The notes under the pieces are model-generated. The model saw only the letters and a list, made by a program, of their open reading frames with translations. It had not been told where the DNA came from and did not search any database. This document shows, piece after piece, positions 966-61,358 of a stretch of 64,000 bases of DNA; position 1 is the stretch's first letter; each line of letters starts with the position of its first letter. This DNA comes from a virus. The stretch covers positions 53,130 through 117,129 of the IMG/VR virus record IMGVR_UViG_3300032268_001483. The stretch is one strand, 5' to 3'. The translations under genes and the position numbers were made by a program.

Positions 966-1358
966 ATGGAAAGTATGATATTACCAGAAAACACAGAAGA
1001 GAAATTTCTATTTATGAAGGAGAAAATTGAAGAAAGATTTTCCAAAGTAAATGCCTCATTTCCATTCACAAAGCCCGAGATTGATGAAGAAACATCAAAT
1101 ACATTAAAGTATATATCTAATTTCTGGCAAGTCTATTATTATACAGATAGACCTTTTATTCAAGATTCAATTAACGATCGAATTCTATCTTGCTCAACAC
1201 TCCCAATTGGTGGTTTTGAATTTCTTATAAACAAAAATAAAGATAAGTTATTTGTTTTTTATTCGTCTACAGGTAGTTATATACGTGGTGAATTTATCCA
1301 ATCACCCGAAGTAATAAATAGACATAGAGATGTGACTATTGATAAATTATTGGATTAA
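966..1358 (+). CDS. Hypothetical protein with C-terminal RDVTIDKLLD motif
   Basis: 130-aa ORF directly after guaC; C-terminal motif shared with 61426 and 62902 ORFs. Confidence 0.7.
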   Translation: MESMILPENTEEKFLFMKEKIEERFSKVNASFPFTKPEIDEETSNTLKYISNFWQVYYYTDRPFIQDSINDRILSCSTLPIGGFEFLINKNKDKLFVFYSSTGSYIRGEFIQSPEVINRHRDVTIDKLLD

Positions 1359-1846
1359 ATTTTTCTAGCTTCTAATGAATATGTAGTCTTGCACTCATAA
1401 ACTGAATTCCAAGCAAATCTTCTTATCTCGTAACCAAATCGCTCTATTTTTTGTAAAGTCAATTCTAAGTCTTCTTCGAATTGACTTTTATCTTTATTGT
1501 CAAATTCTTCAGTTAATTGTAAACCAATATGTATTGCATATGAAAACTGGACTGATACATGGCCTTTTCTATCTTCACTACCATAACTACCACTTATTAA
1601 ATCATAGACACTCAGATAATATTTGTCAGCTAGTTCAACCATCAAATCCTCAATCAAGTCCCTATTATCTTCGGAGAGATTTTCATTTATGAATTCTTCA
1701 AATCTAAGTATGACAGACTCTTTCTCTAAATGAGTCCATTCTTCACCCCAAACCCATTTCCATTTTTTTGGTGTCTTAGATTTGGTTTTATATTTTCTTC
1801 TGATTGCCCAAATCAATCTTAATTGTTTTTCACTTTTTGCTGGCAT
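1355..1846 (-). CDS. Hypothetical protein: basic MPAKSEKQ-type N-terminus, internal capsid-targeting-like motif (LRFEEFINE), paralog of 3407..3787
   Basis: Tightly packed ORF; ENLSEDNRDLIEDLMVELAD...KIERFGY aligns with ESLTEDDRLQIEDTFVFLSD...RIKRFGY of 3407 ORF. Confidence 0.7.
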   Translation of the reverse strand: MPAKSEKQLRLIWAIRRKYKTKSKTPKKWKWVWGEEWTHLEKESVILRFEEFINENLSEDNRDLIEDLMVELADKYYLSVYDLISGSYGSEDRKGHVSVQFSYAIHIGLQLTEEFDNKDKSQFEEDLELTLQKIERFGYEIRRFAWNSVYECKTTYSLEARKI

Positions 1847-2602
1847 TTACTTTAACAATTTTATTATTTGATTTATAATTGCCGATTTACTTCTTCTTGC
1901 ATCAGTTTTTGTAAATACTTCTATGATATTATCAGTTAAACTTCTATTGATTTTATCATGACTTTTCGTATAGTAATTTTTATATTTAGTCCAGCCCTCT
2001 GCCCAATGTGTACCACCTTTTACTTGGTCACCAAGTTTTTTTACTGTTTTCTTAGGTATATCAGTCCGTTTTAATTTACCACCACTACCACCAATCATAG
2101 CTTCTACTAACTCTATCAACCTCCTCTTTTTTGATTCAGAAAACTCACAATCTTCACTTTTCAAATCTTTTAATATTTGTTCCAAAGGTTTTATCCCATG
2201 ATAATCAATTCTTCTTTCATGTGACTTCTTCAATAGTTCTTGACTTTTCTCAAAGTCATTTGATGGTACAAGGACAAAAACATTTTTATAATCCTTAATT
2301 AATTTTTTTACATCACCTTGATAGATGTGTCCTCCACCGAAATCTAATATACTCGGTTTATTATATTTTTCAAAATCTTCTGATAGAACATGCTCCACAC
2401 ATTTGATTTCATTTTCGTTACCATACCCGAAATCTGGTTGTAGTCTATCTAAAGATATTACTTCTAAACCAAGTTTTTCACCTAATTCTTTTGAAATAGT
2501 TGATTTTCCAATAGTTGGCGCACCTAAAAGAATAATTCTATCTTTTTGGCAATATTTCTGATTTTTTGACTCAAATACTCTGTATGATTGTAAATATTTC
2601 AT
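1847..2602 (-). CDS. Shikimate/NMP-kinase-like P-loop protein with capsid-targeting-like N-terminus
   Basis: GAPTIGKST Walker A, SLD and DFGGG motifs resembling AroK; starts MKYLQSYRVFES. Confidence 0.65.
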   Translation of the reverse strand: MKYLQSYRVFESKNQKYCQKDRIILLGAPTIGKSTISKELGEKLGLEVISLDRLQPDFGYGNENEIKCVEHVLSEDFEKYNKPSILDFGGGHIYQGDVKKLIKDYKNVFVLVPSNDFEKSQELLKKSHERRIDYHGIKPLEQILKDLKSEDCEFSESKKRRLIELVEAMIGGSGGKLKRTDIPKKTVKKLGDQVKGGTHWAEGWTKYKNYYTKSHDKINRSLTDNIIEVFTKTDARRSKSAIINQIIKLLK

Positions 2603-2648
2603 TTTTAATAATTTTTTTTTAAACTATATAATTCGAATGTTTCACTTC

Positions 2649-3410
2649 TTAGATTTCGAAATCATCATCATCATCCTGTGTCTGCTCGTTTATAAAATTG
2701 ATTAGTTTTATAAAATCACTCTTTAATTGACTATCAAATAAAATTTCATTAAATTTATCAACGGCTATATTTACAGCTGGTAATAATTTATCATAGTCAA
2801 ATTCATTTCCCTCAAATTTATACTTCTTACTATATCCACTCACAATTCTTTTATTAAAATCACCAACATTAAAGAACATCTCAGGAATAATACTAATCTC
2901 ATTTATTTCTTCATCCATCGAATTTTCACTAACAAACAATATTAATGAGAAGCGTATATAAATATTATCCGAATTTATTTCTCTAATGAATTTATATGAA
3001 CCATCTTCAAAAGACCCAATACTCTTATTTTGACGCACAGGAATCAAAGGACTACTAATTTGTCTATATTTAGGTATGTCCATCTTAAAATCTATATCAG
3101 AAAAATTAGAGAAATTTTCAACCTTTAAATGATTTATAATTAAATCAATTAGTTCTTCTAATGTAATAGAAGAACATCTCAAAATATTATTTATGTTATT
3201 AACAATTAAAGTATATCCACTTCTTTTATCACTCACATCATAATAATCTTCACTTCCAATCATGTTCAAAGCCAGTTCAATACTTTCTTGGTTTTCGGAT
3301 AAAAATAGTTTGAACAAGTTTTCTACCTCATACTTATCAAATTTTTCATCTCCATCAAAAGATTCAAACAGCAAAAAATCTTTAAAATTTTTAATCTTTT
3401 TCATTTTCAT
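2649..3410 (-). CDS. Hypothetical protein, putative internal head protein (start may be 3404)
   Basis: 253-aa ORF; N-terminus MKKIKNFKDFLLFES. Confidence 0.7.
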   Translation of the reverse strand: MKMKKIKNFKDFLLFESFDGDEKFDKYEVENLFKLFLSENQESIELALNMIGSEDYYDVSDKRSGYTLIVNNINNILRCSSITLEELIDLIINHLKVENFSNFSDIDFKMDIPKYRQISSPLIPVRQNKSIGSFEDGSYKFIREINSDNIYIRFSLILFVSENSMDEEINEISIIPEMFFNVGDFNKRIVSGYSKKYKFEGNEFDYDKLLPAVNIAVDKFNEILFDSQLKSDFIKLINFINEQTQDDDDDFEI

Positions 3411-3787
3411 ACATTATTTTTTTTGTTTATATAAATCGAATATAACATATTTTTTTCTTCACTAAAATCAAAAGGATTCACAATTTTTTTTAAATAACCC
3501 CAAGTATTTATCTCTATATAATACCCAAATCTTTTAATTCTCTCAATTACTAATGTTAATTCCTTTTCAAATAAAGTCATATCTATATTGGTATTTGTTA
3601 TTCTAATAACAGTAATAATCCCAGTATCATATAAGGATATATTTATATGACCATTTTTATCTAATTCTGAATCTAAACTGAAATTAAAATCATCAGAAAG
3701 AAAAACAAAGGTATCCTCTATTTGCAACCTATCATCTTCTGTCAAAGATTCATTTATTCTGTAATATTCCAAATATTTCATTTTCAT
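3407..3787 (-). CDS. Hypothetical protein, putative internal head protein
   Basis: N-terminus MKYLEYYRINES; paralogous to C-terminal part of 1355 ORF. Confidence 0.7.
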   Translation of the reverse strand: MKMKYLEYYRINESLTEDDRLQIEDTFVFLSDDFNFSLDSELDKNGHINISLYDTGIITVIRITNTNIDMTLFEKELTLVIERIKRFGYYIEINTWGYLKKIVNPFDFSEEKNMLYSIYINKKNNV

Positions 3788-3789
3788 TT

Positions 3790-4947
3790 TTATTTATATT
3801 TCCAAATAAATCCATTTGAATGTTTATATTTACCCACACAACACATTTGAATACAACTACCTCTACTTCCTGTTTTTTTAGCAGCCTCTACAATTGAATC
3901 AAATTCCATTATGAAGTTACCATCTAAATCATACTGACAAACAGATTTTAAAGTCTTATTTGAATATTTTTTAGGTGGATTATCACCATAATATCTCCAT
4001 ATATATTTACCTGCAGATTTGTATTTTCCTCTACAACACTCACCTATATTACCATGATTTATACCAGTAACTTCCGAAGCCCCAAACATTGAATCAAAAT
4101 CTCTAATCCAATTACCATCTAAATCATACTGACTAACCTTTTTAGAATTTTCATCTAACTTATCCAGATTTAAATCAAACCACTCATCCTTATATCTCCA
4201 AATAAATCCACCACAAGTTTTTTGTTTTCCAATACAACAACCAGAAACATAGAGATTCAAATCTTTTTGAATCCTTTCCGCACTCTCCCACTCACCTACT
4301 AAATTACCCACTAAATCATACTGTAAGACTACCTTTTGACCAGTAGCGAGCTGTTTCATCCACTCAGATTTATCTTTCTCTATTCCCCATTCCTTTAAAC
4401 TTCTGAATACTTTTGTCTCACTACAATTTAACTTCTCTGATATCTTTGGCATTGATAAGTTTTCCACAATGTAAAGTTCATATAATAAATCTTTATCAAT
4501 AAATGTTTTTGGTCTATTATTATAGCCAGGTGTTTCTAAATATTTTTCTTTTAACTTTTCAGAAATTTTTTTCTTATGTTCATCAGAAAGTTTTACACCT
4601 CTTTTAGATTCACTCATTCTTTTCTTGGTTTCTTCGGTGTGTGAATATCCATTACCACCTTGTCCACCCTCAGTGAGATTTGTGAGATTACATCCTTCAT
4701 TTCTCAATTTTTCTATCCAATATTTTTCCCAGTATTCCCAATTATCCTCTTCAACAGTATCCAATGTAGATATTATGGGTCGCTTTTCATTTTTTAATAG
4801 TGATTTGATCCATGATATTTTATGTGACTTTCTACCTGAATAACACTCTTTTATGTGGGAATATAATCTCTGTTTCAAATATTGTTTTGTCTTACCCACA
4901 TATCTTATTTCACCAGATTCATCTGATAGTGCATAAATAATTACCAT
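3790..4947 (-). CDS. Free-standing GIY-YIG homing endonuclease with NUMOD3 and three NUMOD1-like repeats
   Basis: IYAL...YVGK...R...H...E...N GIY-YIG core; HTEETKKRMSE/LSDEHKKKISE (NUMOD3); three V.QYDLxGN...F.S...CC.G...GFIW repeats. Confidence 0.88.
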   Translation of the reverse strand: MVIIYALSDESGEIRYVGKTKQYLKQRLYSHIKECYSGRKSHKISWIKSLLKNEKRPIISTLDTVEEDNWEYWEKYWIEKLRNEGCNLTNLTEGGQGGNGYSHTEETKKRMSESKRGVKLSDEHKKKISEKLKEKYLETPGYNNRPKTFIDKDLLYELYIVENLSMPKISEKLNCSETKVFRSLKEWGIEKDKSEWMKQLATGQKVVLQYDLVGNLVGEWESAERIQKDLNLYVSGCCIGKQKTCGGFIWRYKDEWFDLNLDKLDENSKKVSQYDLDGNWIRDFDSMFGASEVTGINHGNIGECCRGKYKSAGKYIWRYYGDNPPKKYSNKTLKSVCQYDLDGNFIMEFDSIVEAAKKTGSRGSCIQMCCVGKYKHSNGFIWKYK

Positions 4948-4969
4948 AATATAATATAATATTTTTATT

Positions 4970-4980
4970 TATATATTAAA
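4970..4980 (-). promoter_or_regulatory. Late-promoter-like motif for GIY-YIG gene
   Basis: TTTAATATATA on the minus strand. Confidence 0.55.
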
Positions 4981-4989
4981 TATGGTAAC

Positions 4990-5748
4990 CTATCTTTTTA
5001 TCATTACAAAAAACGACGAAGTCGACATCGCTTTTATATCCTCTTCTACCTTCCCCATTTCTTCTTTCCCATCTGACACCAAATCAGCACTATTGTAGGT
5101 AATTCCACCGGGAAGTGTAAAATTAAATTGACCTAATAATCTACCTTGTTGCATCTTAGCCCACCCAGTACAATATCTCAGAAAATAATGATCAGCCATT
5201 AAAGTCTCCAAAGGAATATTGACATAAGCTTCTAATATTAAGTGGTGTTCTACATTTGTTAAAATATTCAATCTATGAGTTAATTGATTGAAGTGAAATT
5301 TAGTAGTATATAAATTCAATTGATTCAACATATCCGCCATTGAGTCAATCTGTGTTTTGTAAATACCCAACTCACCGATAGTTGTTATATAGGATGAAAG
5401 ATATGGTTGATTTGTAACTCCCAGATTTACAGACAAGTTAGGAACATTGATGCCCAGCTGTAAAAGATTTTGATTGCTTAATTTGTAAATCCAAGTTACC
5501 GATTGAATTTCACAAGGTAACTCTATATACTTATAGTTGACGTATTCAGCAGTCGAAAAAGCTGTTTTGTCAATGAAATAATACATTTTACCTACTGCAT
5601 ATTGGTAGTTTTGCCAAAACCATTTTGCGGCTCTTGTTTCTACGAATTGTCTGATTGAATGATCTGGTAGATTTTTTGGAAGAGCTCCCCCAACCGTAAC
5701 ATCGGTTTGAACTAAATCTATAAATTCTTCGATAGTAATTTGACTCAT
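4990..5748 (-). CDS. Neck/head-completion protein (T4 gp13-like)
   Basis: C-terminal WAKMQQGRLLGQFNFTLPGGITYN...GKEEM pattern matches gp13-family LPGG motif. Confidence 0.75.
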   Translation of the reverse strand: MSQITIEEFIDLVQTDVTVGGALPKNLPDHSIRQFVETRAAKWFWQNYQYAVGKMYYFIDKTAFSTAEYVNYKYIELPCEIQSVTWIYKLSNQNLLQLGINVPNLSVNLGVTNQPYLSSYITTIGELGIYKTQIDSMADMLNQLNLYTTKFHFNQLTHRLNILTNVEHHLILEAYVNIPLETLMADHYFLRYCTGWAKMQQGRLLGQFNFTLPGGITYNSADLVSDGKEEMGKVEEDIKAMSTSSFFVMIKR

Positions 5749-5768
5749 AAAATATTTTTAATTTATAG

Positions 5769-5817
5769 TATATATTAAAAAATTAAAGTAACATAAACTC
5801 CAATTTTAGATATATAG
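5769..5817. promoter_or_regulatory. Divergent pair of late-promoter-like motifs (neck gene / Hef-like gene)
   Basis: TTTTAATATATA (minus) and TTTTAGATATATAG (plus). Confidence 0.55.
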
Positions 5818-5821
5818 TAGT

Positions 5822-7630
5822 ATGAATACGATACTTCAAGATATAACTAACAGAACTTCCAATATAGGGTCACTTGTACTCCTGGTAAAAAATAATTCTG
5901 AATACTTAGATTTTATTAATCATAATGTTCCAGAATCTATTTTAGATAGACAGCTATCTGAAAAAATTTATTATTTAGTTAATAATATAAACACACCTCA
6001 GTTATGTAGATGTGGAAAACATCTATCTTTTATTGGCTTTAAAAATGGTTATAGAAAGAGTTGTGGTGATAGGGAATGTTATGTGAGTTCAAGAAAAGAA
6101 ACTTGTATTGAAAAGTTTGGTGTAGATAATCCAAAAAAATCTAAAGAAATTTTGGAGAAAGAAAAAGAGAACATTCGTAAAAAATGGAATGGTGAACATT
6201 TCATGCTGAATAAAGACATAAAAGATAAGTTTAAGAAAACAATGATTGATAACTGGGGAGTTGAATGGGCTCAACAAAACAAATCTATTAAAGATAAATC
6301 CCTAGAAACTTGGAATAATAATCCAGAAAAGGTGAGTGTAATAGAATCGAGAAAAAATAAATTATTGAAAAAATCCGATGAGGAGAAAAGTATCATAGAA
6401 AATAAAAAAAGAGCAAAGATAATTGATAAATTCAGTACCTATGAAAACTTCATAAATTTCAGAAAAGAAAAGATTGAAGAGGCTTCTATAGAAAAGTATG
6501 GAACTCAACACCATCTTTCTTCTCCAGAAGTAATTAAATTGAGAATTGATAAATATAAAGAAAAAATCACCCAAAAGATTTTAGAGAAATTACCCAATAC
6601 TTTAACTTATTTAGATAGGTTTCATAATAAGAATCTTACTGACCACTACATTAAATTGCATTGTCAAAATTGTGATAGTGAATTTTCTATAACAAGACAA
6701 TTATTAGTAAATCGAATTAACTCCGGAATAGAAGTGTGTTTGAATTGTAATCCAATATTAGTTGGTAAGTCTAAAGGAGAAGAAGAAGTATTTGAATTTA
6801 TATCATCAATTTATAGTGGACAAATTTTACAGAGATATAGAATTGATGGAAAAGAAATTGACATTTACTTACCGGATTTGAAAATAGGATTTGAATATAA
6901 TGGACTATTTTGGCATTCTAACTTACACAAAAGCTCACAATTTCATTTAGAAAAAACAAAATTTTTTGAGGAAGTTGGAATTAAATTAATTCATATTTGG
7001 GAAGATGATTGGTTATATAAAAGGGAAATTATAAAATCAATAATATCAAATAAGATAGGTGCTACTAAAAATAAAATCTTTGCAAGAAAATGTCAGGTAA
7101 GAGAAGTTGATAATAGTCAAGTTCGTAGTTTCTTGGAAAGTAATCACATACAGAGCTTTGTGGGCTCACGAGTTAAACTTGGACTTTTTTATAAAGATGA
7201 ATTAGTTAGCATAATGACTTTCGGTAGTCTTAGAAAATCTTTAGGTTATAACAATGTCGAAGGCAATTGGGAATTGTTGAGATTTTGTAATAAATTAGAT
7301 TGTTCTGTAGTCGGTGGTGCCTCTAAATTATTCAATTATTTCTTGAAAGTATGGAAGCCAAGTCAAGTCATAAGTTTTTGTGATTATAGTAGATCAGATG
7401 GGAATATCTATAAAACTTTAGGATTCGAGTTACAACATCTTTCAACTCCTAACTATTACTACATCGTAGATAGTGTTAGAAGACATAGATTCAATTATAG
7501 AAAGGACAAATTAGTTACTAATGGATCTGATTCTAATCTAACAGAATCACAAATTATGCAAAATTTAGGTATAAATAAAATTTATGACTGTGGTATGCAG
7601 AAATGGATTTTTATCCGAATTGAAAGTTAG
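5822..7630 (+). CDS. Hef-like endonuclease: Zn-ribbon + EKFGVDNP repeats + Vsr/DUF559-like nuclease + Mom/GNAT-like C-terminal domain
   Basis: CRCG/CxxC ribbons; EKFGVDNP, WGVEW, EKYGTQH repeats; EIDIYLP..GFEYNGLFWH..IHIWEDDW; ELLRFC..VVGGASKL..IYKTLGF. Confidence 0.8.
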   Translation: MNTILQDITNRTSNIGSLVLLVKNNSEYLDFINHNVPESILDRQLSEKIYYLVNNINTPQLCRCGKHLSFIGFKNGYRKSCGDRECYVSSRKETCIEKFGVDNPKKSKEILEKEKENIRKKWNGEHFMLNKDIKDKFKKTMIDNWGVEWAQQNKSIKDKSLETWNNNPEKVSVIESRKNKLLKKSDEEKSIIENKKRAKIIDKFSTYENFINFRKEKIEEASIEKYGTQHHLSSPEVIKLRIDKYKEKITQKILEKLPNTLTYLDRFHNKNLTDHYIKLHCQNCDSEFSITRQLLVNRINSGIEVCLNCNPILVGKSKGEEEVFEFISSIYSGQILQRYRIDGKEIDIYLPDLKIGFEYNGLFWHSNLHKSSQFHLEKTKFFEEVGIKLIHIWEDDWLYKREIIKSIISNKIGATKNKIFARKCQVREVDNSQVRSFLESNHIQSFVGSRVKLGLFYKDELVSIMTFGSLRKSLGYNNVEGNWELLRFCNKLDCSVVGGASKLFNYFLKVWKPSQVISFCDYSRSDGNIYKTLGFELQHLSTPNYYYIVDSVRRHRFNYRKDKLVTNGSDSNLTESQIMQNLGINKIYDCGMQKWIFIRIES

Positions 7631-9117
7631 CCAAACTACAAATCTTACCTTTTACAAGTCCTTTTTCACAACAAGTTCTAACTAGTTGAATTGAGGCTAC
7701 AACTAAAAGTGTATATTTCAAAATAGTTAAAACTGGGCCGATTTGTGTTTCTAAAATTGCTACCAAACTTGCACCTATAATTGGAGCAACTACTTTAGCA
7801 AATCCGCTAAAAATAGACTTTAATTTTTGATTTTTATTTATCGATACTTCACCAGCCTGTTCAATCGATTCCTGTGCTTGTTGAGTAGGATCACCCTCAT
7901 CTTCTGCCTCTCCCGAAATAATTTCATCTACTTTAGGCAAAACTTTACCAAATGCTTTATATTTATATGCTTTATCTAATCCCCTTCTAGCAACTCCTGA
8001 TATTAGATATAGAGCGCCATTTGTTCCATACTTCAAAGCCTTCAAAACAAGATAGTCTATAGGTCTAATAATTAATTTAAAACATTCTAAAACCCAACCC
8101 ATTACACCCATTCTACCTTTAACTGCCTTTTCTTCACCACCCTTTTCACCAGATGATTTTGAAACTATATCACCTTTCTCTTTGTAGAATTCATTTTCTT
8201 CTTTATCTTTAAAATAGAATTTATCACCTTCTATCTTTGTTATTTCTTTTTCTATTTCTTCTCCAGTTTTAGATTTATATTTTACTTTATCACCAACATT
8301 ATATTCTTGAGCTTCTTGTACCTCATTTATTATCATATCAACATCACTCAGATTACCACCTTCAACTAAAAAACCTTTGAGTGAATAGTAAACTCTTTCG
8401 AAATTAAATTTACTATAAAGATTGAATGAGTCCTTAACTAAATCTTCAATTTTATCTAAATCATCAACTGCATCATATTCTGATGCCTCCTCTTCTAATT
8501 TCTTTTTTACTTCATCAGAGGTGTTACCTATCTCACCTTTTGAAAATCTACTTTTGATACCGTTCAAGTCTGATACAACTTCACCTGTTTCAGTTGAGAA
8601 AGTTTCATCTAAAATAATTTCAGATAAGGCTTCTACTGATGGATTTTTTTGATTTTCTATTATCCATCCACCTACACTTTTAACTAATGTGATCCCGGCA
8701 GTTTTTGTGATTTCCCAAAGAGCTATAAATACTTGACTTATTTTTTTAAAGATATTTGATATGGTATCTTTTATATTTTTTAAAAATTCAGTAAAACTAT
8801 TATAAGCTTTTCCAACAATATTAATACCGCCTTCCCAAGCATTTTTTGTTGCGTTCCATATTTTACCAAAAATATTTTCTTCTTCTAAAATTGAACTATC
8901 ACTATTTAAAAAACTTCCATAAATTTCTTTAATGATAATTTTATCTAATTTTTTAAAATTTATATTTTTTTTTGAATTGTGTCACGTCAATTCTTTCTGA
9001 TATAAGACAACTTTCAAAAATTGATTTATTCGATTCTCTACCTATATTATAAAAATAGTATAGATTATCAACCTTTCTACTTTGACTAAAACTTGAATAA
9101 TTTTTTATATATCTCAC
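7611..9117 (-). pseudogene. Frameshifted (or slippage-expressed) ~501-aa putative virion protein; GTG start overlaps the paaA stop; A9 run at 8965-8973 breaks the frame
   Basis: Hand translation: 9117 [13 protein letters not shown]...TQFKKK YKF* (stop 8953-8955); the frame of the 7611..8567 ORF is open without ATG up to about 8981; removing one A fuses them. Contains an SH3/KOW-like YNVGDKVKY segment and hydrophobic helices. Confidence 0.7.
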
Positions 9118-10051: not shown

Positions 10052-10777
10052 TTAAATCTTCTTTAATTGAACTACAACTTGATTATCACCACCAGTGAGT
10101 TCACATCTAAATCCACCTTGTGTCACTCTTGTTGCCCACTGAATTAGATCAGCATCTCTGGTAGCATCTAATTGATTATTAAAAGATCTCCTAATTTTTT
10201 GATTAAGTGCATAATCGTTTCCATACAATCCACCACCTTTTACAGGTGTTCTTATTTCTAACCAATTAGAACGTTTTAGATTTACTTTTTTGTAATTATA
10301 TTTTGTTTTCAAAATTATTTCTAATTCTTTCAGAAAATTTTCTATTTGTTCTTTTACATCAAATTCAGAACTTTCTACAAGTCCACCAACTATGTAAAAT
10401 TTTATTTCTAAATCTTCCCAACTTGGTTTAACTCGGAAGTTTGGAGACTCACCGCTTCGATGATAAAATTGTTCGATTTCTGATAAAATTTTGGAAAGTA
10501 CTTTAATATCGGTCAAACATCTACCACCACCACTATGAGGCTGGATACCATCAGCTACACCTTTTAAATTAATTGTAATTTCTTTACATTTTTTTGTATC
10601 TTTTTTTACATTAGCAACATCAGTAAAAAATCTATTATCAGAAGAAACAAATCCTTCTACAAGTCTAAATTGTTTATTGTCAACGTAGTCGATAAATAGA
10701 TCTTCTATATCTTCGTTATCTAATTTGAAACTTTCAAATAGACTTTCAAAGTTGTTAAATTTTTTTAATTTTTTCAT
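10052..10777 (-). CDS. Hypothetical protein, putative internal head protein
   Basis: N-terminus [16 protein letters not shown] followed by EDIEDLF. Confidence 0.7.
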
Positions 10778-10956
10778 GACTTATATTTTCCTCCTCTTTT
10801 TTTCCTTTTACAATATTGCCTTTGAGAAAAGCCTAAATTAGGGTTACTACAATTTATTGATTTTTTGTATTTTACAGACCATCTTTTTTTACCACCCGCT
10901 CTTGGCTTATTGTAACTTTCGAATAAAAATTCTTCAAAATTTAATATTTTTTCCAT
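10774..10956 (-). CDS. Small basic Cys-containing protein (WSxKYKxSIxC..GFSQxxxC type) with capsid-targeting-like leader
   Basis: MEKILNFEEFLFES then RWSVKYKKSINCSNPNLGFSQRQYC, a motif recalled from T4-like aquatic phages. Confidence 0.7.
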   Translation of the reverse strand: MEKILNFEEFLFESYNKPRAGGKKRWSVKYKKSINCSNPNLGFSQRQYCKRKKRGGKYKS

Positions 10957-10958: not shown

Positions 10959-11492
10959 TTAACTCTTAAATAAATCATTTACATTAAATCCTTCTAATGA
11001 TGCTCCCAATAGATTCGCTGGTGGATCTAAATTGACATAACCTTCCAAATAGTCTATGAAGAATTTTCTAAGCTCTGTAGCATTCAATCTAGCCTTTTTA
11101 TAGTCATTAATATCAAAACGAAAATCGTATGAATATCTTAAAACTAAAACATTGCCTTCTTTCTGAATGTAGAAAACCAAAGGTATTTTCTTCTGGCTTC
11201 CCCAATTTGATTCTAATATTATTTCGAAAATAACCCTACTACCAACTACCTTCTGTGCCGGGAGTGTGAAAGGTTTGACATCAATTATACTAAAAAATTC
11301 TCCATCCGGACTAATTTCGAAGATAAATCTAAATGGCCAAAGTCTAGGTTTGGATGTAGGCATATCTGTCCCTAATTCAGTTGCATGTTTCAGTAATTGT
11401 TCTTTTCTCTTGGGGTGGTGGTGACCAAGTCTATCAGCAGCACTTTTATAAGTAGATTTGAATAATTCATTTAATGTTTTTAAGTATTTCAT
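10959..11492 (-). CDS. Hypothetical protein, putative internal head protein
   Basis: N-terminus MKYLKTLNELF; late-like promoter upstream. Confidence 0.7.
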   Translation of the reverse strand: MKYLKTLNELFKSTYKSAADRLGHHHPKRKEQLLKHATELGTDMPTSKPRLWPFRFIFEISPDGEFFSIIDVKPFTLPAQKVVGSRVIFEIILESNWGSQKKIPLVFYIQKEGNVLVLRYSYDFRFDINDYKKARLNATELRKFFIDYLEGYVNLDPPANLLGASLEGFNVNDLFKS

Positions 11493-11571: not shown

Positions 11572-12048
11572 ATGAAACATATTAAACTATTTGAAAACTT
11601 CAATTTGGAAGACATACTTTATCAAATAAATCTTATTTGTGATAGAGATAATTACCATAATCCACAAATAAGAACTTCGAATAAATCTTACAATGAGGAG
11701 TTTATTACCTATCTCTGGGAAATAGCTGAAATTAAGAGAATTGACGCTCTTGGTGGTACAGAATCTAAATCAGGCTTTAGAAGATATGATATTTCTAACA
11801 AAGTGAATTTTGAAGATATTATACATATGGCTCCGACTGGCATAGCAACTGGTATAAAAATAGTAAAATATCCAATGGCTAAAATGTTAGATTATGAGAC
11901 CTGGTCCGGTGGTTATATTGAAGGTTTTATCAGAATGGATAGTGATGATAGGAGATTTGGTGAGTATTTTATTTGGACTTATATTAAGATGGATAGACTT
12001 AAAGATATAATTGAAAAATTTAGTGATAAGTTGAATTTAGATTTTTGA
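11572..12048 (+). CDS. Hypothetical protein, putative internal head protein
   Basis: N-terminus MKHIKLFENF. Confidence 0.7.
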   Translation: MKHIKLFENFNLEDILYQINLICDRDNYHNPQIRTSNKSYNEEFITYLWEIAEIKRIDALGGTESKSGFRRYDISNKVNFEDIIHMAPTGIATGIKIVKYPMAKMLDYETWSGGYIEGFIRMDSDDRRFGEYFIWTYIKMDRLKDIIEKFSDKLNLDF

Positions 12049-16487: not shown

Positions 16488-16522
16488 AAAAAAAAGAGGA
16501 TTTTTAAATCCTCTTTTTTTTT
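16488..16522. terminator. Bidirectional intrinsic terminator between convergent genes
   Basis: A-run-GAGGATT/AATCCTC-T-run hairpin. Confidence 0.7.
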
Positions 16523-31228: not shown

Positions 31229-31240
31229 TCTATAGTAATA

Positions 31241-32131: not shown

Positions 32132-32153
32132 TTAAAATTTTATATATAATGTT

Positions 32154-44080: not shown

Positions 44081-47000
44081 TTATAATCCAGATAGATTGC
44101 CAATATTTGGAAGATTTGGTGATGTAGAACCAATTGTTGGTGTCAATATTGTCGGTCTCGGAACAAATGGACTTGACACTTGCACTATTGGAGAAAATGG
44201 TACGATTGGATCTCCTTCATAACCTGTGAATAAATCGTTTAAACCTCTGATTTCATAGTTTTTCTTAACTGTATATATTTGCCCATAACCATTATCACTT
44301 GTTACTTCTATTACTATGAATGGATCTATATTTGTATCAACTGTGAAATTATAAGAATGAGTAGCTGTTCTGTATTCGGATAAGTATTGCACTGGTTCAA
44401 GATCGAATACTTTCCATTCAGTCATATCTGTCCACGATGCAAATGACATATTCTGATTAATATCTAAAAGTGGATTCAGAGTATTAGAATTTGTACCAGA
44501 CACCATAAATGAGGACATAGTTCCTATATATTGATAGATAAGTCTATCGTAGTTTACTAATTCCCCTAATGTGTAATCAACTTCTGAACTCCATCCTAAG
44601 ATATTGTCATACTTTCTTGGATTTCTAATTCTATTATTTGAGATTACAGATATATAGAGTTTTTCGAAGTATGTCACTTTATCACCTATTTGATATGTTG
44701 TAAATGGATTCCATTCCATATATGTTTTATATGTCCTTATATTGATTGTGAAATAATCCGGAACTTCCGTTGATTTATTATTACTAAAATCTATATGACA
44801 AGTATATACTGTACTGCCACTGTTTACTGGCATCAAATATGCTTCAGTTAGATTAAAATCAATTGGAGTCATTGACTGTCTGATGTTAAGAATCTTTGTA
44901 TCATAATTTCTATGAACAATATCAGTGTTTCCAACAAAATCTGCCCTTCCCGTTATATCTAAAATTTGATGTGTAATAGGTATTACTTTTCTTTCTAGCC
45001 AATATTTCAAACCTTCTAGTTTAATAATAACCTCACCTAATGAATATAGTAATACGTTATTTCCCTCCTTATCCGTAATTTTATAAGTTAGATTGAATAA
45101 ATTTGTATTCTCAAAATTTGCATTTGGAAAAGTACCCCTAATGAAATCATTTTCTTTCCAACCCTCTACTGTATTATCAAATATATCAGGAACCTCTACT
45201 TTGAATAGCTTACCTAAGTCCGGAGAGCTCAGATTTATATTTCTATAATACTCATATAATTCCAAATCGTTGTAACCAAAGAAATTTATTGCATTAATTA
45301 TGGCTTTATAAGAACCAACATATGGAAAGATATCGTGTCTTACCATCATTAGTTCCTTTCTCTTTTTATTAAGATAAGTCCAATCAATACCCTGTTCATT
45401 TATATCATATGGTTTGAATATATAGACATCTTCCGGGTCGATATTTTGACCGACATTATTTAACTCAATTTTATATCTAATGTCTTCTATTTCTGTTTGT
45501 CCAGATATTACAAACCTACCTATTGTTTTATCCATCACCTTAAATCTAACACTTAAATAAGTTGTCTGACTAATTTTTGGATAATCGTTTATCTTCGTAC
45601 TTTCTTCATATAAAAAGTCACCAAAATCAACGGTTAGTGTTCTAGTTCTAATTTCTCTTATTCTAAATTGCTTACCATTATTTACTGAGATGTATTTATT
45701 TTTAGAATTAGTTATGTCTGTGATAAATACCTTTATTATTTGACCTACTTTCAAACCTCTTGGATTTCCTTGGTTATCATTTGTAAATGTAGATGTAGAG
45801 TTAATATCAAATGATATGGTTCCATAAAATTTTCCACCACTTTCTACGAATTTAAAAGTTAAAATATCTGAATTAGAAGAATTTGAGTTGATTGTAAAAT
45901 TTATTTCTTCACGTTTAACAAAAAGTAGTGCTGAAGACATGAATCCCTCATCCTGAGAATTATACCCAAGAAACGCTTGAAGTGGTTGTGGTACAACTGA
46001 AAGATCATTTTCATCATCAACATGTGATAGGGTAGTCACAACCTCGCTGAAAATTGTTTGTTGAAACTCAGGTAAAGATACCTTACCAATATCTTTATTT
46101 GGTGTTTTATTCAACGAAATTGTTGTTAGAGGTTTCGGTCCAGTATAAGCATAAGATCCAGTTATAGGTAATTGATCACCGCTAAAATCAAATAAAAACA
46201 TTTCTGGATATTGGTCCGTTTCCCACTTCCATACATATTTTACATAGGGTTCATTGTTATAATTTTCTCTTGGTTTTCTTAGATATTGTCTAGTTTTTAG
46301 CCATATATCCGTATAAGGTACATAGTCCGGACTAAGAGTACCGAATTGATTCTGATCTAAAATAGAATATGTCTGTGTATTTAAAACTACCGAGGTGCCC
46401 AATTCCACAGAAATTTCTATAAGTGTATTTGTATTTGGTTGAATACCAAACATAGTATTCCTTTCTGGATCAAATATCAACTTGGTGATAATGCTATTCA
46501 CAGTTTTACTTGATTTAACTATACCTGTGGTAGAATCTATCACAACAAACTTTGGTGAATTAAGAGAAGGTAAGTACACATCTCCATCCCATCCATTTAT
46601 AGAGAGTTTACCATATTCCGGAATCACTGATGTAAAATCCAAAATATTAGTATCCGAAATTTTAGAATAAGATGTGAATTGAGAAAGTATTAAATTGCCG
46701 CCTATATGATTAAAAATAAGATTGTTAAAACTTGAAGTCCCAACCCCTAAAATACTTGATATATTACCGTTATTAATATTGTTTAATCCAGTTGCGCCAA
46801 AATAATATACAGATGAATTTATAGGTTCGTAAAAAATTTCACTGTATAATCCACTAACACTATAGGAAGCTACCACTGCTCTTGAATTCGAATCGATTCT
46901 AATCAAGTAATCATCTGCTTGTGTTATATACACATCGTTTTCTGATTTATTGTAAACCATATTTAGAGTGTTACCAGTCGTATTTACCGATACAGTAGGA

Positions 47001-49917: not shown

Positions 49918-50499
49918 ATGAAATATCTTCAGCAATTTAATAACTTCACACCAATCAGTGAAAATCTAAAATATCATTTAGACAATAACCTTTCAATTTT
50001 AGAAAATGTTTTTAGACCCTATTCCGATTCTTTCTATAATTTATTAACAGAAGCAAGAAACCTATTCGATAACGGATTTGATAACTTCCCAGATTTAGAT
50101 AAAAACCTTTTTGAGAATACAGATTTTGGTAAATTTGCTCAATTCGAAGGTAAAATTGTTCCATTAGATTTACCAATTGAAAATATAGATTCTATATTGG
50201 AAGCAGAACATGCCGGAAAGAAAGTCAAACTAAACAAACCAATGAGAAGTAGTGGACCTAAAAAATATAAAGTCTATGTTAAAAATCCAAAAACAGATAA
50301 GGTTAAAGTTGTACATTTTGGTGATATTAAAGGAGGATTAACATCTAAGATGAATGATAAGGAAGCTAGAAAATCTTTTGTAGCACGTCATAAATGTGAT
50401 ATGAAAAAAGATAGAACTAAGGCTGGATATTGGTCTTGTAATTTACCTAGATACGCAAAGTATTTAGGATTAGCTGGTGGTGGTAATTTCTACTGGTAA
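49918..50499 (+). CDS. Putative internal head protein with basic DUF5754-like C-terminal domain
   Basis: MKYLQQFNNFTPISE; KKYKVYVKNPK..VHFGD..RKSFVARHKC..AGYWSC. Confidence 0.7.
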   Translation: MKYLQQFNNFTPISENLKYHLDNNLSILENVFRPYSDSFYNLLTEARNLFDNGFDNFPDLDKNLFENTDFGKFAQFEGKIVPLDLPIENIDSILEAEHAGKKVKLNKPMRSSGPKKYKVYVKNPKTDKVKVVHFGDIKGGLTSKMNDKEARKSFVARHKCDMKKDRTKAGYWSCNLPRYAKYLGLAGGGNFYW

Positions 50500-50515
50500 A
50501 ATTAAAATGTTAATA

Positions 50516-50929
50516 ATGAATTACCTTAAAACGTTTGAAAATTTCCAAGACGATATAATTAAAAGTACTGCTAACCAATTAGTAGAAACACTACATTGTG
50601 ATAGATTTGGTGCTTGTGTCCATTTTGCTGAAGAATTTGTCCTAAAAATCCATCAAATAAATCCAGAATTACTAAATCAATTTTTTGTAACAGAGAGGTT
50701 TGTTAATTGGTCTCACGGTGATGGAATTCCGCAACAACATACTTGGATTGAACTTCTAAATGGTGAAAAAATAGATCCTACCTATATCCAATTCACTAAG
50801 TATGGTACTGCGAGTTATTCAAGAAAGATTAAAAATAAATTCACTGGACTAGAATATTATAATGATACAATTGGTGGTACTTGGTTTTCAGATAGAAGAA
50901 AAAAATTTCCAGAAATGATTTACAAATGA
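50516..50929 (+). CDS. Papain/transglutaminase-like protein with capsid-targeting-like leader (start revised from 50477)
   Basis: MNYLKTFENF; putative triad GAC...HTW...IDPT. Confidence 0.6.
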   Translation: MNYLKTFENFQDDIIKSTANQLVETLHCDRFGACVHFAEEFVLKIHQINPELLNQFFVTERFVNWSHGDGIPQQHTWIELLNGEKIDPTYIQFTKYGTASYSRKIKNKFTGLEYYNDTIGGTWFSDRRKKFPEMIYK

Positions 50930-51510
50930 GATATATAAAACCTTTTAAAATATTCGAGTCTAGTACAAGTGAAAGATTATATCACGGTAATAGAAAAGGA
51001 GATTTTCCTCCAGAAAAGAGAAGATTTGCCGGTGCAATTTTTCTTACAAGTAATTTAGAATTTGCTAAAAACTTTGCAGGTTTTGACGAAAGAGAAGAAT
51101 TTCCAAACGGGTCGGTATGGGAAATACTTCTAAAGCCTAACTTAAGACTTTGTGATCCTATGAGTCAAGACACAATAAATAAATTAGATTTAATTTCTAC
51201 TTTACAAAAAATGATAGCTAGTAATTATGTAGATCCTACTAATGGAACAAAATTTTCAACTGTTCAAGTGGGATTAAGTGGATATAATCCAGAAACTAAT
51301 GAAAACTTCGAATTAAAGACACCAGATGAATCCGTATATCATTATTTGTGGAGAATTAAAAATGGTGCTTGGAGGATTATTGAATGTCAACCTATAATTG
51401 AACAAATAAAGTCAAATGGATATGATGGTTTCTATGTAATAGAGAGGGGTTCTAAAAATGTTGCAATTTTTAACGAGAATTCTATACAAAAATTTGAAAA
51501 AATTCTATGA
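50926..51510 (+). CDS. ADP-ribosyltransferase-like protein with capsid-targeting-like leader
   Basis: MRYIKPFKIFES; LYHGN, AIFLTSN..FAKNFA, GYDGFYVIE..NVAIF (ART/PolyVal-like pattern). Confidence 0.65.
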   Translation: MRYIKPFKIFESSTSERLYHGNRKGDFPPEKRRFAGAIFLTSNLEFAKNFAGFDEREEFPNGSVWEILLKPNLRLCDPMSQDTINKLDLISTLQKMIASNYVDPTNGTKFSTVQVGLSGYNPETNENFELKTPDESVYHYLWRIKNGAWRIIECQPIIEQIKSNGYDGFYVIERGSKNVAIFNENSIQKFEKIL

Positions 51511-51773
51511 TATTTCCATTCAAAGAGACTAAATTAGAGGATAATATTTTTATCAGAGAATTCAATCAACAAACCGACTCTTCAGAGATGGTTTGGCATA
51601 GAGATAACGAAGATAGAATAATAGAGTCTTTAGAAGAAACAGATTGGATGTTTCAATTAGATAATAAATTGCCACAAAAAATTAGTGGTGAAATATTTAT
51701 ACCAAAAGAAGTATATCATAGGTTAATTAAAGGGACTGGTGATTTGAAAATAAAATTAATTAAATTAGTATGA
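51507..51773 (+). CDS. Small cupin-like conserved phage protein
   Basis: WHRD...IFIPKEVYHRLIKG two-His cupin pattern. Confidence 0.6.
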   Translation: MIFPFKETKLEDNIFIREFNQQTDSSEMVWHRDNEDRIIESLEETDWMFQLDNKLPQKISGEIFIPKEVYHRLIKGTGDLKIKLIKLV

Positions 51774-52180
51774 AGTACATAAAATTATTTGAAAATTTTT
51801 TTAGTAAAATTGATTTCGGAAATCAATTATGGGTAGAGGCTGATTGGTACAGTTGGGATGATTTAATATGGAATGAACAATCAGAAGAACTGGAACAACA
51901 TGAAATTACTCAAATTTTGGATAAGTTCAAATCAGATAAAGACTTCAGAATTAAAGAATACAGAGTCGTAAAAAGAATACATAGAGATGACTTTAATTCT
52001 TGCCTTAGTATTGATAATGGGAATCATCCAACAGCAACAGTATTGATTTTTAAGTTTAGAGATGATATGTGGTTGATAGAAATATTTGATTTTAAAACTC
52101 AAGACGATGCAAAATTTGCTTGTGATGGCACCGATGGATTATTATTATGGCTTGAAGAATGGGTGAAAAAATTAAGATAA
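51770..52180 (+). CDS. Hypothetical protein, putative internal head protein
   Basis: MKYIKLFENF. Confidence 0.7.
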   Translation: MKYIKLFENFFSKIDFGNQLWVEADWYSWDDLIWNEQSEELEQHEITQILDKFKSDKDFRIKEYRVVKRIHRDDFNSCLSIDNGNHPTATVLIFKFRDDMWLIEIFDFKTQDDAKFACDGTDGLLLWLEEWVKKLR

Positions 52181-52221: not shown

Positions 52222-52446
52222 ATGGATTTAATGACATTTGAAAGCTTCCACTTTAATTTTGATTCTTATCAAGAATACATTATCGTGGAAAAAAACATAC
52301 CAACTAACTCCGAATTATGGAGTGCTTGTAAATCTTGGGCTAAATCAAAATACGATGTTTGGCCTTCTGCTTATGCTTGTGGAGCTGCAGCAAAAAGATA
52401 TAAAAGTAAAGGCGGTAAATGGAAAAAGAAAAAAAAATCTAAATAA
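52222..52446 (+). CDS. Small basic protein (DUF5872-like) with tag-like leader
   Basis: MDLMTFESF; PTN.ELW..K..AKSKYDVWPSAYA..YKSKGGKW. Confidence 0.7.
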   Translation: MDLMTFESFHFNFDSYQEYIIVEKNIPTNSELWSACKSWAKSKYDVWPSAYACGAAAKRYKSKGGKWKKKKKSK

Positions 52447-52448: not shown

Positions 52449-52754
52449 ATGGAACGTTTACTCAACTTCGAGGAATTTCTTTTAGAAGAAAAAAAGGCTT
52501 ATGCTGATACCAAAGGTGGTTTAGATAAATGGTTTAAAGAAAAATGGGTTGATATATCCAAAACTAATGCTGACGGGTCACATCCACCCTGTGGTAGAGA
52601 TGATGCGAGTAAAGGTAGTTACCCAAAATGTAGAAAAGTTAGAGTGGCTGCAAAAATGACTAAAAAAGAAAAGAAAGCTTCTGTTCAAAGAAAAAGAAAG
52701 GCTGAAGATAAGGGTTCGAAAGGTAGTGGTAGAAAGCCAAATTATGCAAAATAA
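52449..52754 (+). CDS. Small basic Cys-containing protein with tag-like leader
   Basis: MERLLNFEEFLLEE; GGLDKWFKEKWVDI..PCGR..YPKCR. Confidence 0.7.
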   Translation: MERLLNFEEFLLEEKKAYADTKGGLDKWFKEKWVDISKTNADGSHPPCGRDDASKGSYPKCRKVRVAAKMTKKEKKASVQRKRKAEDKGSKGSGRKPNYAK

Positions 52755-53941: not shown

Positions 53942-54316
53942 TTACCCTAATACCTTCTTAAATTTTTCAGGAGCACTCCCCAAATCTAAAATTCTTGCTT
54001 TTACTTGCACACCATCTCTTAGAGCCTTAACAACTCTGTGTTGTCCATCTAATATTGATGTATATTCACCTCTTTTTGATAGAAGTATTATTGGATGTTT
54101 CAAATCTGATGCATCAACTCTTTCTGGGTCTCTTTCGACATCAATTAAAAGATGTTCTATGTCTTCTGGATTCAACTCTATAATGTTGTCTAAATAATTT
54201 AAGATATCAGTTAAAGTAACTCTAACTGGTTTATTTTTGATTTCTACTTCCCAATAAGTTTCCTCTCCGGTTCCCTCAGGTTGTTCGAAGTTTTCGAATA
54301 GTTTTATGTACTTCAT
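53942..54316 (-). CDS. ParB/sulfiredoxin-like N-terminal domain protein with capsid-targeting-like leader
   Basis: MKYIKLFENFE; HPIIL...ILDGQHRVVKA. Confidence 0.75.
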   Translation of the reverse strand: MKYIKLFENFEQPEGTGEETYWEVEIKNKPVRVTLTDILNYLDNIIELNPEDIEHLLIDVERDPERVDASDLKHPIILLSKRGEYTSILDGQHRVVKALRDGVQVKARILDLGSAPEKFKKVLG

Positions 54317-54655
54317 TTATTTGAAATCAAATTTATCTTGATAATACTTTCTTAAGAATACTTCTAATTTAGCACATTTCTTTTCAATGTCTAATCTTAT
54401 TTTATTATAACCATTTTCACTTAGGGGATCGTCGAAAATGTTTTTTAAAGCCTTGACCTCTAAATCACAAATCATATTTTTATTCTTATCCTTTACTTTA
54501 GCCTTATTCATCTCTAACCACTCATCAATTAATTTATCTTCACACTCCAATTCACCTTGTAGATAAAGTGGTATTATAAACGAAGCATACTTCTTGATTA
54601 TACTTGGATCCGGAAAGAAATTTTTCTTTTCATTTATCTGACTAAACTTTAACAT
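54317..54655 (-). CDS. Hypothetical protein
   Basis: MLKFSQINE leader; late-like promoter upstream. Confidence 0.65.
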   Translation of the reverse strand: MLKFSQINEKKNFFPDPSIIKKYASFIIPLYLQGELECEDKLIDEWLEMNKAKVKDKNKNMICDLEVKALKNIFDDPLSENGYNKIRLDIEKKCAKLEVFLRKYYQDKFDFK

Positions 54656-58507: not shown

Positions 58508-58528
58508 GTTTTAGTTGTTATTTTTTTT

Positions 58529-58628
58529 TATATATTAAATTACTATTACCCCCTTTTGATTTTTTCTTTGGAATTTTAAAATTTTTTACATAAAAATATT
58601 AAGGGGGGTAATTATTTTTAATATATAG
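58529..58628. promoter_or_regulatory. Divergent late-promoter-like motifs within an imperfect inverted repeat (uvsX / endonuclease)
   Basis: TATATATTAAA..ATTACCCCCTT ... AAGGGGGGTAAT..TTTAATATATA. Confidence 0.6.
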
Positions 58629-58632
58629 TATT

Positions 58633-60237: not shown

Positions 60238-60248
60238 ACGAGAGGATT
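60226..60248. terminator. Terminator-like hairpin between convergent genes
   Basis: AATCCTCTC-taaac-GAGAGGATT. Confidence 0.65.
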
Positions 60249-60254
60249 ATCTAT

Positions 60255-61358
60255 TTATAAACTTTCCCAAATTTTTTTAAAAAATTCTTTTAGACCAGAA
60301 TTTTCAAATTTATTTTCACAGATAAATGTTAGATTCCTTTGACCTTCTAAATGATTCACCCATTCTGTCACCTTACCATTTTTATCTTTTATGCTCTTTT
60401 TGATGTCTACAATTGAGGCAATCATCCAATCAGAAACACTTTTTACTAAGTTTACTTTTGTTTTGTAATCTTCATTGACGATATCTAATGTTAAAACTTG
60501 ATATCTCCCTTCATTTATATTCAATATGTGTGAAGTTTCACTTGAAATTTCATGAATATTAATACTTGTCTTAATTTGATAATTTCGAAAAACTGATTTT
60601 GTTACTCTTTCAGTTTTATCTATTAAACTTTCATCTAAAATATCAAATAGGAAAGCTTCTTCATAACTTTCTACTACTCTTGAAAGATGTTTGATATTAT
60701 TTTCATTTAAATTAAAATTTATTCCACAATTACCAAGATTTATTAGGGATGATTTTTTTCTATCGGTATATTTTAGATATTCTAAGCTTTCTTCTAATGT
60801 GGTGGAACCATCTATTTCGAGATAAATATCTAAAATATTTTTTGTTTCTTGGTCACTGGTATCATAATGCACTACTCCATTTCCTAATTCTATCTTACCA
60901 TTTCTAATCAATTCGATTAGAGGTTCTTCTGTGTTGAAATAAAGCATTTCATCAGGACTTATAGTTATTTCAGTTTTACTTTCACCTACTCTTGGTGAGT
61001 TAGCATGAAGAGCACCACCGAGATTATTTGTTCTGGAGATTCCATCTCCACCGTTTACTTTGTATTTATTCATAGGTATATCTTTTCCGATTGCTTCTGG
61101 GTTTTCTATAAAATATTCAATCGCTTTTTGTTTCAATTCATCATAAATATCATCCATATTCATTGAATCGATATTTTTTGGTGGTTCTTCGCCTGCTGCC
61201 CTGTATAATAATTTCAAATCGTTTCCTTGAATAATTTGGTCTACATAAGATTTGGCATTTTGTTGAACCACAGGGTTATGTTTTGGTAAAAAATCAATAG
61301 ATGAACTATCTCTATCATCATCAGTCACCATTGATTCAAATTCTTTAAATTTTTTCAT
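60255..61358 (-). CDS. Hypothetical protein, putative internal head protein
   Basis: MKKFKEFES leader; late-like promoter immediately upstream. Confidence 0.7.
   Translation of the reverse strand: MKKFKEFESMVTDDDRDSSSIDFLPKHNPVVQQNAKSYVDQIIQGNDLKLLYRAAGEEPPKNIDSMNMDDIYDELKQKAIEYFIENPEAIGKDIPMNKYKVNGGDGISRTNNLGGALHANSPRVGESKTEITISPDEMLYFNTEEPLIELIRNGKIELGNGVVHYDTSDQETKNILDIYLEIDGSTTLEESLEYLKYTDRKKSSLINLGNCGINFNLNENNIKHLSRVVESYEEAFLFDILDESLIDKTERVTKSVFRNYQIKTSINIHEISSETSHILNINEGRYQVLTLDIVNEDYKTKVNLVKSVSDWMIASIVDIKKSIKDKNGKVTEWVNHLEGQRNLTFICENKFENSGLKEFFKKIWESL

Follow-up and report, generated by a model that had tools for sequence, protein, structure and literature searches.

A short N-terminal tag recurs on many unrelated proteins of a huge phage and may be a T4-type capsid-targeting propeptide

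Tagged genes of the locus

We analyzed a 64,000-nt stretch of viral DNA (the window), which comprises bases 53130-117129 of the linear, 117,129-bp IMG/VR contig IMGVR_UViG_3300032268_001483 (30.5% G+C; about 50% complete according to CheckV), and in which a series of unrelated open reading frames (ORFs) begin with variants of one short peptide, here called the tag. The 146 non-overlapping ORFs called on the contig include genes for a UvsX-like recombinase, an Mre11/gp47-like nuclease, ribonucleotide reductase (RNR), GlmS and tail-fibre proteins, and Bacteroidota-style lipoprotein signals are present among the encoded proteins. The closest deposited phage records are 'uncultured phage' genomes of 642, 634, 636 and 735 kb; UvsX of the contig phage is 66% identical to that of LR756502.1 (642 kb) and 45% identical to that of LR756501.1 (735 kb), and a comparison of 20 kb of nucleotide sequence with cultured phages gave no match. 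In size these relatives agree with the largest genomes of the Mahaphages, whose predicted hosts are Bacteroidetes (PMC7162821), and the contig represents roughly half of a freshwater Mahaphage-like huge phage.

Within the contig the tag follows the consensus M-K-[HY]-[LI]-K-x-[FY]-E-x-F and extends over 10-13 residues. A preliminary description of the window had listed 19-20 ORFs as sharing such a start, and all of them are present with these N-termini. The motif clearly exceeds chance: the regular expression M[KR].[LI][KQ].[FY]..F matches at 18 ORF starts in the contig, with no match elsewhere in its six frames, none in 20 codon-shuffled genomes and only 0.002 expected from composition-matched N-termini. 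Scoring membership by a leave-one-out position-specific scoring matrix (PSSM), we counted about 25 strongly tagged ORFs in the contig together with about 10 gapped or shortened variants, so that 25-35 of the 146 ORFs, about a fifth, bear the tag. The window itself holds 11 strong cases, including one absent from the preliminary list that is also the sole regular-expression match without an anchoring Met (ORF 42476-42904), and about nine weaker ones (Table 1). They cluster at 1.8-3.8, 9-12 and 49.9-54.7 kb, in agreement with the clustering described earlier, and the tag is not found on the tail-fibre genes, UvsX, RNR or GlmS of the contig.

Past the tag, the carriers are unrelated, as had been proposed: an all-against-all BLASTP comparison with the first 20 residues removed linked only one paralogue trio (contig 4329-6242, contig 46308-47729 and window 16504-18336). 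AT-rich codon bias, which the preliminary description had named as a possible cause, was ruled out, since several synonymous or alternative codons occur at the conserved residues (ATA, ATT, TTA, TTG, CTT and CTA for Leu/Ile, TTT and TTC for Phe, TCN and AGT for Ser); this variation argues for selection on the peptide rather than on the DNA. The regions upstream of the tagged genes are dissimilar, and many tagged genes are operon-internal.

Outside the window, a 517-aa protein (contig 30957-32510, minus strand) has a tag-like start, MKKELKHLKKFESE, and repeats the tag almost perfectly 18 residues short of the C-terminus (SLKYLRTFENFRQNKKRGF, followed by the stop). No other strong internal copy occurs in the contig, and this one may have been left by a downstream gene that became fused.

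Table 1. Tagged ORFs of the window, in window coordinates. The first 11 rows are the strong cases and the following nine the weaker variants, the last three of which are marginal; PSSM values are leave-one-out scores.
Feature	Position	Strand	Evidence and remarks
Tagged ORF, 124 aa, MKYIKLFENFEQ	53942-54316	-	PSSM 30.9; homologues in loci L019, L042 and L092 keep the tag
Tagged ORF, 158 aa, MKHIKLFENFNL, ORFan	11572-12048	+	PSSM 27.2; no Pfam family, no homologue
Tagged ORF, 136 aa, MKYIKLFENFFS, ORFan	51770-52180	+	PSSM 24.8
Tagged ORF, 241 aa, L-F-E at residues 13-15	10052-10777	-	PSSM 21.1
Tagged small ORF, 54 aa, GTG start	8953-9117	-	PSSM 16.4
Tagged ORF, 137 aa, MNYLKTFENFQD	50516-50929	+	PSSM 15.4; true start is an internal Met of ORF 50477-50929
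Tagged ORF, 251 aa, MKYLQSYRVFES, then P-loop kinase-like domain	1847-2602	-	PSSM 15.2; Pfam SKI, AAA_18/33
Tagged ORF, 194 aa, MRYIKPFKIFES, I-F-E-S	50926-51510	+	PSSM 14.8
Tagged ORF, 193 aa, MKYLQQFNNFTPISEN, then conserved LKYH domain	49918-50499	+	Homologue comparison
Tagged ORF, 251 aa, MKKIKNFKDFLLFES	2649-3404	-	PSSM 11.1
ORF with tag shifted 6 residues, MKRISYLKRIKLFLEF	42476-42904	+	PSSM 10.6; absent from the preliminary list
Weak variant, MKYLEYYRINES	3407-3781	-	PSSM 3.6
Small ORF, 60 aa, MEKILNFEEFLFES	10774-10956	-	Fits T4-like pattern F..F[ILV].E
ORF, 101 aa, MERLLNFEEFLLEE	52449-52754	+	C-terminal half of DUF5872
Weak variant, MKYLKTLNELFK	10959-11492	-	N-terminus
Short variant MKKFKEFES, 367 aa	60255-61358	-	No Pfam or PHROG family
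610-aa protein, start MKNYYEFLVE	16504-18336	-	6/10 residues identical to T4 sequence MKTYQEFIAE
Marginal variant MRIKRFHQYES	37939-38208	-	At internal Met of TTG-started ORF
ORF, 74 aa, marginal tag MDLMTFESF	52222-52446	+	N-terminal half of DUF5872
Marginal variant MLKFSQINE	54317-54655	-	N-terminus

Distribution, modularity and cargo

A strict back-translated form of the tag pattern matched more than 117 IMG/VR stretches, nearly always at ORF starts, and only 76 times in 596 Gb of prokaryote genomes, where most matches lay on contigs of metagenome-assembled genomes, many of them labelled Bacteroidota. Among the 117 listed viral loci, 94 share at least one non-tag gene with the contig phage or its two big relatives. 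This distribution marks the tag as viral and as the property of a clade. Of the deposited genomes, the complete LR756502.1 carries it on 72 of 965 ORFs, mostly as MK[HY]LKx[YF]KIFES, and the first 400 kb of LR756501.1 on about 34 of 544 ORFs in shorter forms (MDKYNNFINEA, MVKRYKQFINEG, MIKKFKLFE), with no long form found in that genome; it is also present in the huge-phage records G001 and G004 (complete, 348 kb). G004 is myovirus-like, with diverged genes, and encodes Hsp70, ClpB-like and EF-G-like proteins. A tblastn search with an 86-aa tagged protein gave no match, because the tag is too short for BLAST. Six tag strings did not occur in the open-access literature searched, and the paper that describes the Mahaphages makes no mention of the tag (PMC7162821).

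The environmental sequences define the tag more fully than the contig does. In 142 non-redundant environmental tagged ORFs, which were selected without use of positions 11-13, position 11 is [IVL] in 49%, position 12 is N in 41% and position 13 is E in 55%, and conservation ends after residue 13. The module conserved across the clade is thus MK[HY][IL]K[LT]FExF[IVL]NE. What follows it is highly variable: the 261 tagged ORFs of the listed environmental loci fall into 197 sequence clusters, 156 of which are singletons, and 14 of the 21 strongly tagged contig proteins have no homologue (E < 1e-4) in the two relatives, G004 or the 117 listed loci.

The relation between tag and cargo is best seen in the protein with the LKYH domain (ORF 49918-50499), which has thousands of homologues. 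Of its 120 closest, 79 pass the tag PSSM, and among the 75 of these 120 that could be anchored on the LKYH motif nearly all start with a tag variant followed by P-I-S-E-N. Distant homologues in the cultured Flavobacterium phage immuto and Tenacibaculum phage pT24 begin directly at the domain, and no tag was found anywhere in either genome. The cultured Methylophilales phage Melnitz, which also encodes a homologue, does not carry the tag; its 651-aa protein has the N-terminus MKKFSEIIEA and bears the domain at its other end. Judged from these homologues, the tag is a modular, detachable N-terminal extension.

To describe the cargo, we took a Pfam census of 150 tagged proteins, namely 21 from the contig and 129 cluster representatives. 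It recovered GNAT, P-loop and zeta-toxin-like kinases, ankyrin, SET, NT5C, lysozyme, Zn protease, cytidylyltransferase and other domains, nearly every family in a single protein (the 25 commonest families match one or two members each), and we estimate that most of the 150 proteins have no family match. The tagged proteins of the contig itself yielded only one P-loop kinase-like domain and two halves of DUF5872, and for the large tagged proteins neither PHROG nor Pfam gave informative matches. The two DUF5872 halves lie on adjacent ORFs (Table 1), each with its own tag-like start, which points to a split or duplicated domain. The AlphaFold2 model of the 610-aa protein (mean confidence, pLDDT, 90.5) has an N-terminal helix at residues 4-18; its structural neighbours are only weak matches, all GNAT folds, which include the tRNA-acetylating toxins KacT, AtaT and TacT, and a beta-rich repeat region follows. 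Taken as a whole, the cargo looks like an effector set.

Likeness to the T4 targeting sequence and the head genes of relatives

In bacteriophage T4, the head protease gp21 cuts after an I-x-E motif. T4 internal proteins receive a single cut next to a capsid-targeting sequence (CTS) of about 10 residues at their N-terminus, MKTYQEFIAE (PMC8442874), and any protein fused to this CTS goes into the head, green fluorescent protein and staphylococcal nuclease being packageable (PMC3012670). The tag resembles the CTS in several respects. When the pattern [YF]..F[ILV].E is drawn from the CTS and sought among the first 18 residues of ORFs, it turns up about 20 times as often as expected (observed/expected 5/0.3 in the contig, 21/1.1 in LR756502.1 and 18/0.8 in LR756501.1). 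On the T4 genome, the Met-anchored back-translated form of the pattern matches ipII, ipIII and gp61.1, the last of which (NC_000866 18966-19130, minus strand, 54 aa) starts MKTFKEFIKE and is recorded as a hypothetical protein.

The family of the 610-aa protein joins the two forms of the tag. It comprises more than 471 environmental proteins with starts of the type M..Y.EF[IL][LV]E and no Pfam domain, and one homologue, P0005, starts MKTYNEFLVE where T4 has MKTYQEFIAE. The two contig paralogues start MRFIKLYEQF and MNKIFNFQSFLES, and the orthologues of the relatives show further variants at the same position. Since paralogues and orthologues of one family bear either the long tag or the T4-like form, the variants appear to be functionally interchangeable. 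The dominant form, MKHLKLFENF, fits the T4 CTS only with a 3-residue indel. From these comparisons, sequence likeness to the T4 CTS holds for a subset of tags and is plausible for the rest.

A potential cleavage signature accompanies the tag. The motif [LIV]-x-E with its Glu at residues 11-24 is present in 12 of 21 tagged vs 33 of 125 untagged contig proteins (odds ratio 3.7, p = 0.009) and in 38 of 76 tagged vs 225 of 889 untagged proteins of LR756502.1 (odds ratio 3.0, p = 1e-5), and six further contig tags have L-F-E at residues 6-8.

The preliminary description had proposed a search for a gp21-like protease and a scaffold elsewhere in the genome: a protease of the T4/phiKZ class is present in the relatives, and none was found in the contig itself, which is about 50% complete. 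The portals of LR756502.1 and LR756501.1 match Portal_T4 (E 1e-58 and 8e-71). These relatives also have a gp23-like capsid protein, their head genes stand in T4 order, and immediately upstream of the portal gene there are tagged ORFs in the same orientation. The head maturation protease was recognized by phrog_207 at E 5e-28; against Peptidase_S77 it scores 22.7 bits, below the 27-bit cut-off. In the protease ORFs (LR756502.1 225272-227371, 699 aa; LR756501.1 73913-76336, 807 aa), the C-terminal half, behind the protease domain, consists of 11-13 tandem 14-residue repeats in perfect register, NLDKNIxYSEYIAE, the core of which, YSEYIAE, parallels the T4 CTS core YQEFIAE and ends in I-x-E. From its sequence, the repeat-bearing protease ORF looks like a fused, self-cleavable scaffold. 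An ungapped tag PSSM run on the head region found no tag-like repeats.

Taken together, these observations suggest that the tag is a T4-type capsid-targeting propeptide, used far more widely than in T4, a reading to which we assign a probability of roughly 55%. The capsid-targeting idea of the preliminary description is retained, strengthened by the head genes of the relatives, the T4-like variants, the (L/I/V)-x-E signature and the YSEYIAE repeats; its promoter argument fell away as a specific association, the cargo is not basic, and packaging, cleavage and injection are steps that we infer. On this reading the head probably carries a large set of proteins that changes fast and is injected.

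Mechanistically, the tag would fold as a short amphipathic helix that docks a protein onto the prohead scaffolding core during head assembly; in the nearest relatives this core would include the protease-scaffold protein with its 11-13 T4-tag-like repeats (Y-S-E-Y-I-A-E). A head protease of the T4/phiKZ class would then cut after the Glu of (L/I/V)-x-E at or just behind the tag, as in the scaffold repeats, and the trimmed proteins would remain in the head and enter the host with the DNA. There they could act as effectors of the first minute, for example in counter-defence or host take-over, and the rapid turnover of cargo (14 of 21 without homologue) would fit an arms-race role like that of T4 IPI and IPIII. 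A broader version, in which a clade of Mahaphage-like Bacteroidota phages loads dozens of hypervariable effectors (GNAT-toxin-like, kinase, ankyrin, SET; at least 70 per complete genome) through a scaffold-mimicking tag, injects them with the DNA and so uses a portable label outside the T-even group, is more tentative, and we give it somewhat short of an even chance.

Weighing the reading against its competitors

Several observations weigh against capsid targeting. When a profile hidden Markov model of the scaffold repeat was run on four proteomes, its scores did not exceed those of reversed-sequence controls and had no N-terminal preference, so that the likeness between tag and repeat is one of short pattern only. 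The CTS-like start of T4 gp61.1, with nothing beyond a hypothetical-protein record, means that the pattern by itself is no proof of packaging. A few tags, such as MKYLKTFESHSN, lack any (L/I/V)-x-E, and the dominant form in the contig phage is often missing its [IVL]-N-E end. The contig yielded no gene for a protease, scaffold, portal or capsid protein; according to CheckV it holds about half of the genome. Likewise, in G001 and G004 neither Portal_T4 nor an S77 or phrog_207 protease was detected; the head genes of these two phages were not identified, protease and capsid queries from the relatives giving nothing or weak matches. Some cargo is metabolic-looking, with NT5C, cytidylyltransferase, a Pol-beta thumb domain and a D-Ala-D-Ala ligase-like domain. 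The tagged proteins are also not basic. Their median isoelectric point is 5.7 in the contig and 5.1 in LR756502.1, where untagged proteins are significantly less acidic; T4 IPI-III, by contrast, are small and highly basic, a trait of these proteins rather than of CTS function.

The proposed promoters gave no specific support either. The tagged genes had been described as lying mostly behind late-like promoters, yet a TATATATA-type box precedes 9 of 26 tagged vs 29 of 120 untagged genes (Fisher p = 0.32), and it also precedes UvsX and the homing-endonuclease genes. The AATATATA/TATATATA box stands before tagged genes, tail-fibre genes and the portal and capsid genes of a relative, and its enrichment on tagged genes in LR756502.1 is modest (odds ratio 2.7, p = 0.002).

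The best-surviving competitor, which we regard as rather unlikely, is that the tag serves as a helix by which proteins dock with, or are sorted to, a partner other than the capsid: a phage-encoded chaperone system, a protease that reads it as a timed degron, a modifying enzyme that recognizes a leader, or a membrane. A short amphipathic K-x-[LI]-K-x-F-E-x-F could bind many partners, and the acidic cargo with its ordinary cytoplasmic enzymes, the occurrence of the tag in G001 and G004, where T4-type head genes were not detected, and the DnaJ-like protein of the contig (51617-52657) together with the Hsp70 and ClpB-like proteins of G004 would all suit such a role. Across the 117 listed loci, however, no enzyme or 'receptor' family co-occurs with the tag, the commonest neighbours being T4-like replication and tail genes, and docking to another partner predicts neither the specific resemblance to the T4 CTS nor an excess of (L/I/V)-x-E nor conservation that stops abruptly at a Glu.

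A shared start that has no function as a peptide is improbable in our view, whether it be a recombining gene-start cassette or a translation optimum in Bacteroidota hosts that do without Shine-Dalgarno sequences. In T-even phages, a hypervariable locus that recombines has the conserved CTS region at its flank. Many tagged genes here lie in hyperplastic arrays, the first 30 nt are near-identical among 20 genes of G001, and MK starts are common in these AT-rich genomes; the CTS-bearing internal proteins of T-even phages are themselves highly diverse and have the CTS alone in common (PMC3012670). A cassette is nevertheless at odds with the different codons at conserved residues, which include first-base changes (ATA/TTA/CTT for Ile or Leu, TCT/AGT for Ser), and with the unlike upstream regions and operon-internal positions of the genes. 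F7, E8, F10 and the terminal [IVL]-N-E are moreover conserved at the amino-acid level in contigs that are distant from one another; a translation optimum would not end at Glu, and neither version predicts that the tail-fibre genes, UvsX, RNR and GlmS lack the tag. Descent of the tagged ORFs from a single family, as diverged paralogues with the N-terminus best conserved, was rejected and is scarcely credible: a trio in the contig and an expanded tagged family in G001 exist, but once the first 20 residues are removed BLASTP finds no further related pair among the tagged proteins, and the cluster counts of the environmental ORFs, the unrelated Pfam folds of tagged proteins and lengths of 54-637 aa speak against common descent. 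Even jointly, a cassette or translation effect and hidden paralogy carry little probability, well below that of another docking partner.

Returning to the capsid-targeting reading, the T4 CTS (IPII and IPIII, also IPI and Alt; removed by gp21) is the closest known counterpart. In both systems a tag of about 10 residues with an MK start, a terminal Glu and, in many variants, an aromatic-x-x-F-[ILV]-x-E core sits on unrelated, non-essential, fast-evolving proteins, and the relatives of the contig phage have a T4-type portal, protease and capsid protein. The systems differ in scale, with a handful of tagged proteins in T4 vs 25-35 in this half-genome and 72 in the 642-kb relative; moreover, the dominant tag here (MKHIKLFExF...) is 3 residues longer, and the cargo is acidic to neutral and includes enzymes. 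A CTS on diverse internal proteins is already established for T-even phages; scale, sequence variant, clade and a possible mimicry of the scaffold are the new elements here.

The huge phages phiKZ, 201phi2-1 and SPN3US are similar in having many internal head proteins (about 50 head species in SPN3US), a gp21-like protease that cuts after Glu at (A/S/G)-x-E, and propeptides thought to target the prohead (PMC5694885). Their propeptides are mostly 80-160 residues long and share no short sequence, whereas here one short consensus is reused. Encapsulin cargo-loading peptides, too, are short shared peptides that direct diverse cargo into a shell of HK97 fold; they differ in being usually C-terminal, in binding the shell directly and in staying uncleaved, with no scaffold or protease involved.

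If the capsid-targeting reading is correct, injected proteins would be a major and expandable part of huge-phage biology, with 7-25% of genes marked for delivery, rather than a T-even curiosity. Hundreds of orphan genes in environmental huge phages would gain a role that can be tested, as effectors of counter-defence or take-over in the first minute, and a simple sequence rule could find injected effectors in metagenomes. The tag would also be a second natural address for loading foreign proteins into phage heads, and it suggests how the T4 tag itself might work, namely by imitating a scaffold repeat.

Further features of the contig lie at and beyond the window's edges and near its first cluster of tagged genes. 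The DnaJ-like gene lies on the plus strand directly upstream of the window and encodes a protein with MDYYDILGV…HPDK. At the contig end, a short ORF (window 63782-63985, minus strand) is a tandem array of the nonapeptide MMAQSVQRV, encoded by a 27-nt repeat. Two ORFs resemble homing endonucleases of the GIY-YIG type (window 3790-4947, minus strand; contig 7478-8776, plus strand), with …YVGKT and …YIGKS near their starts; they are weakly related to each other, and a TATATATA box lies upstream of each.

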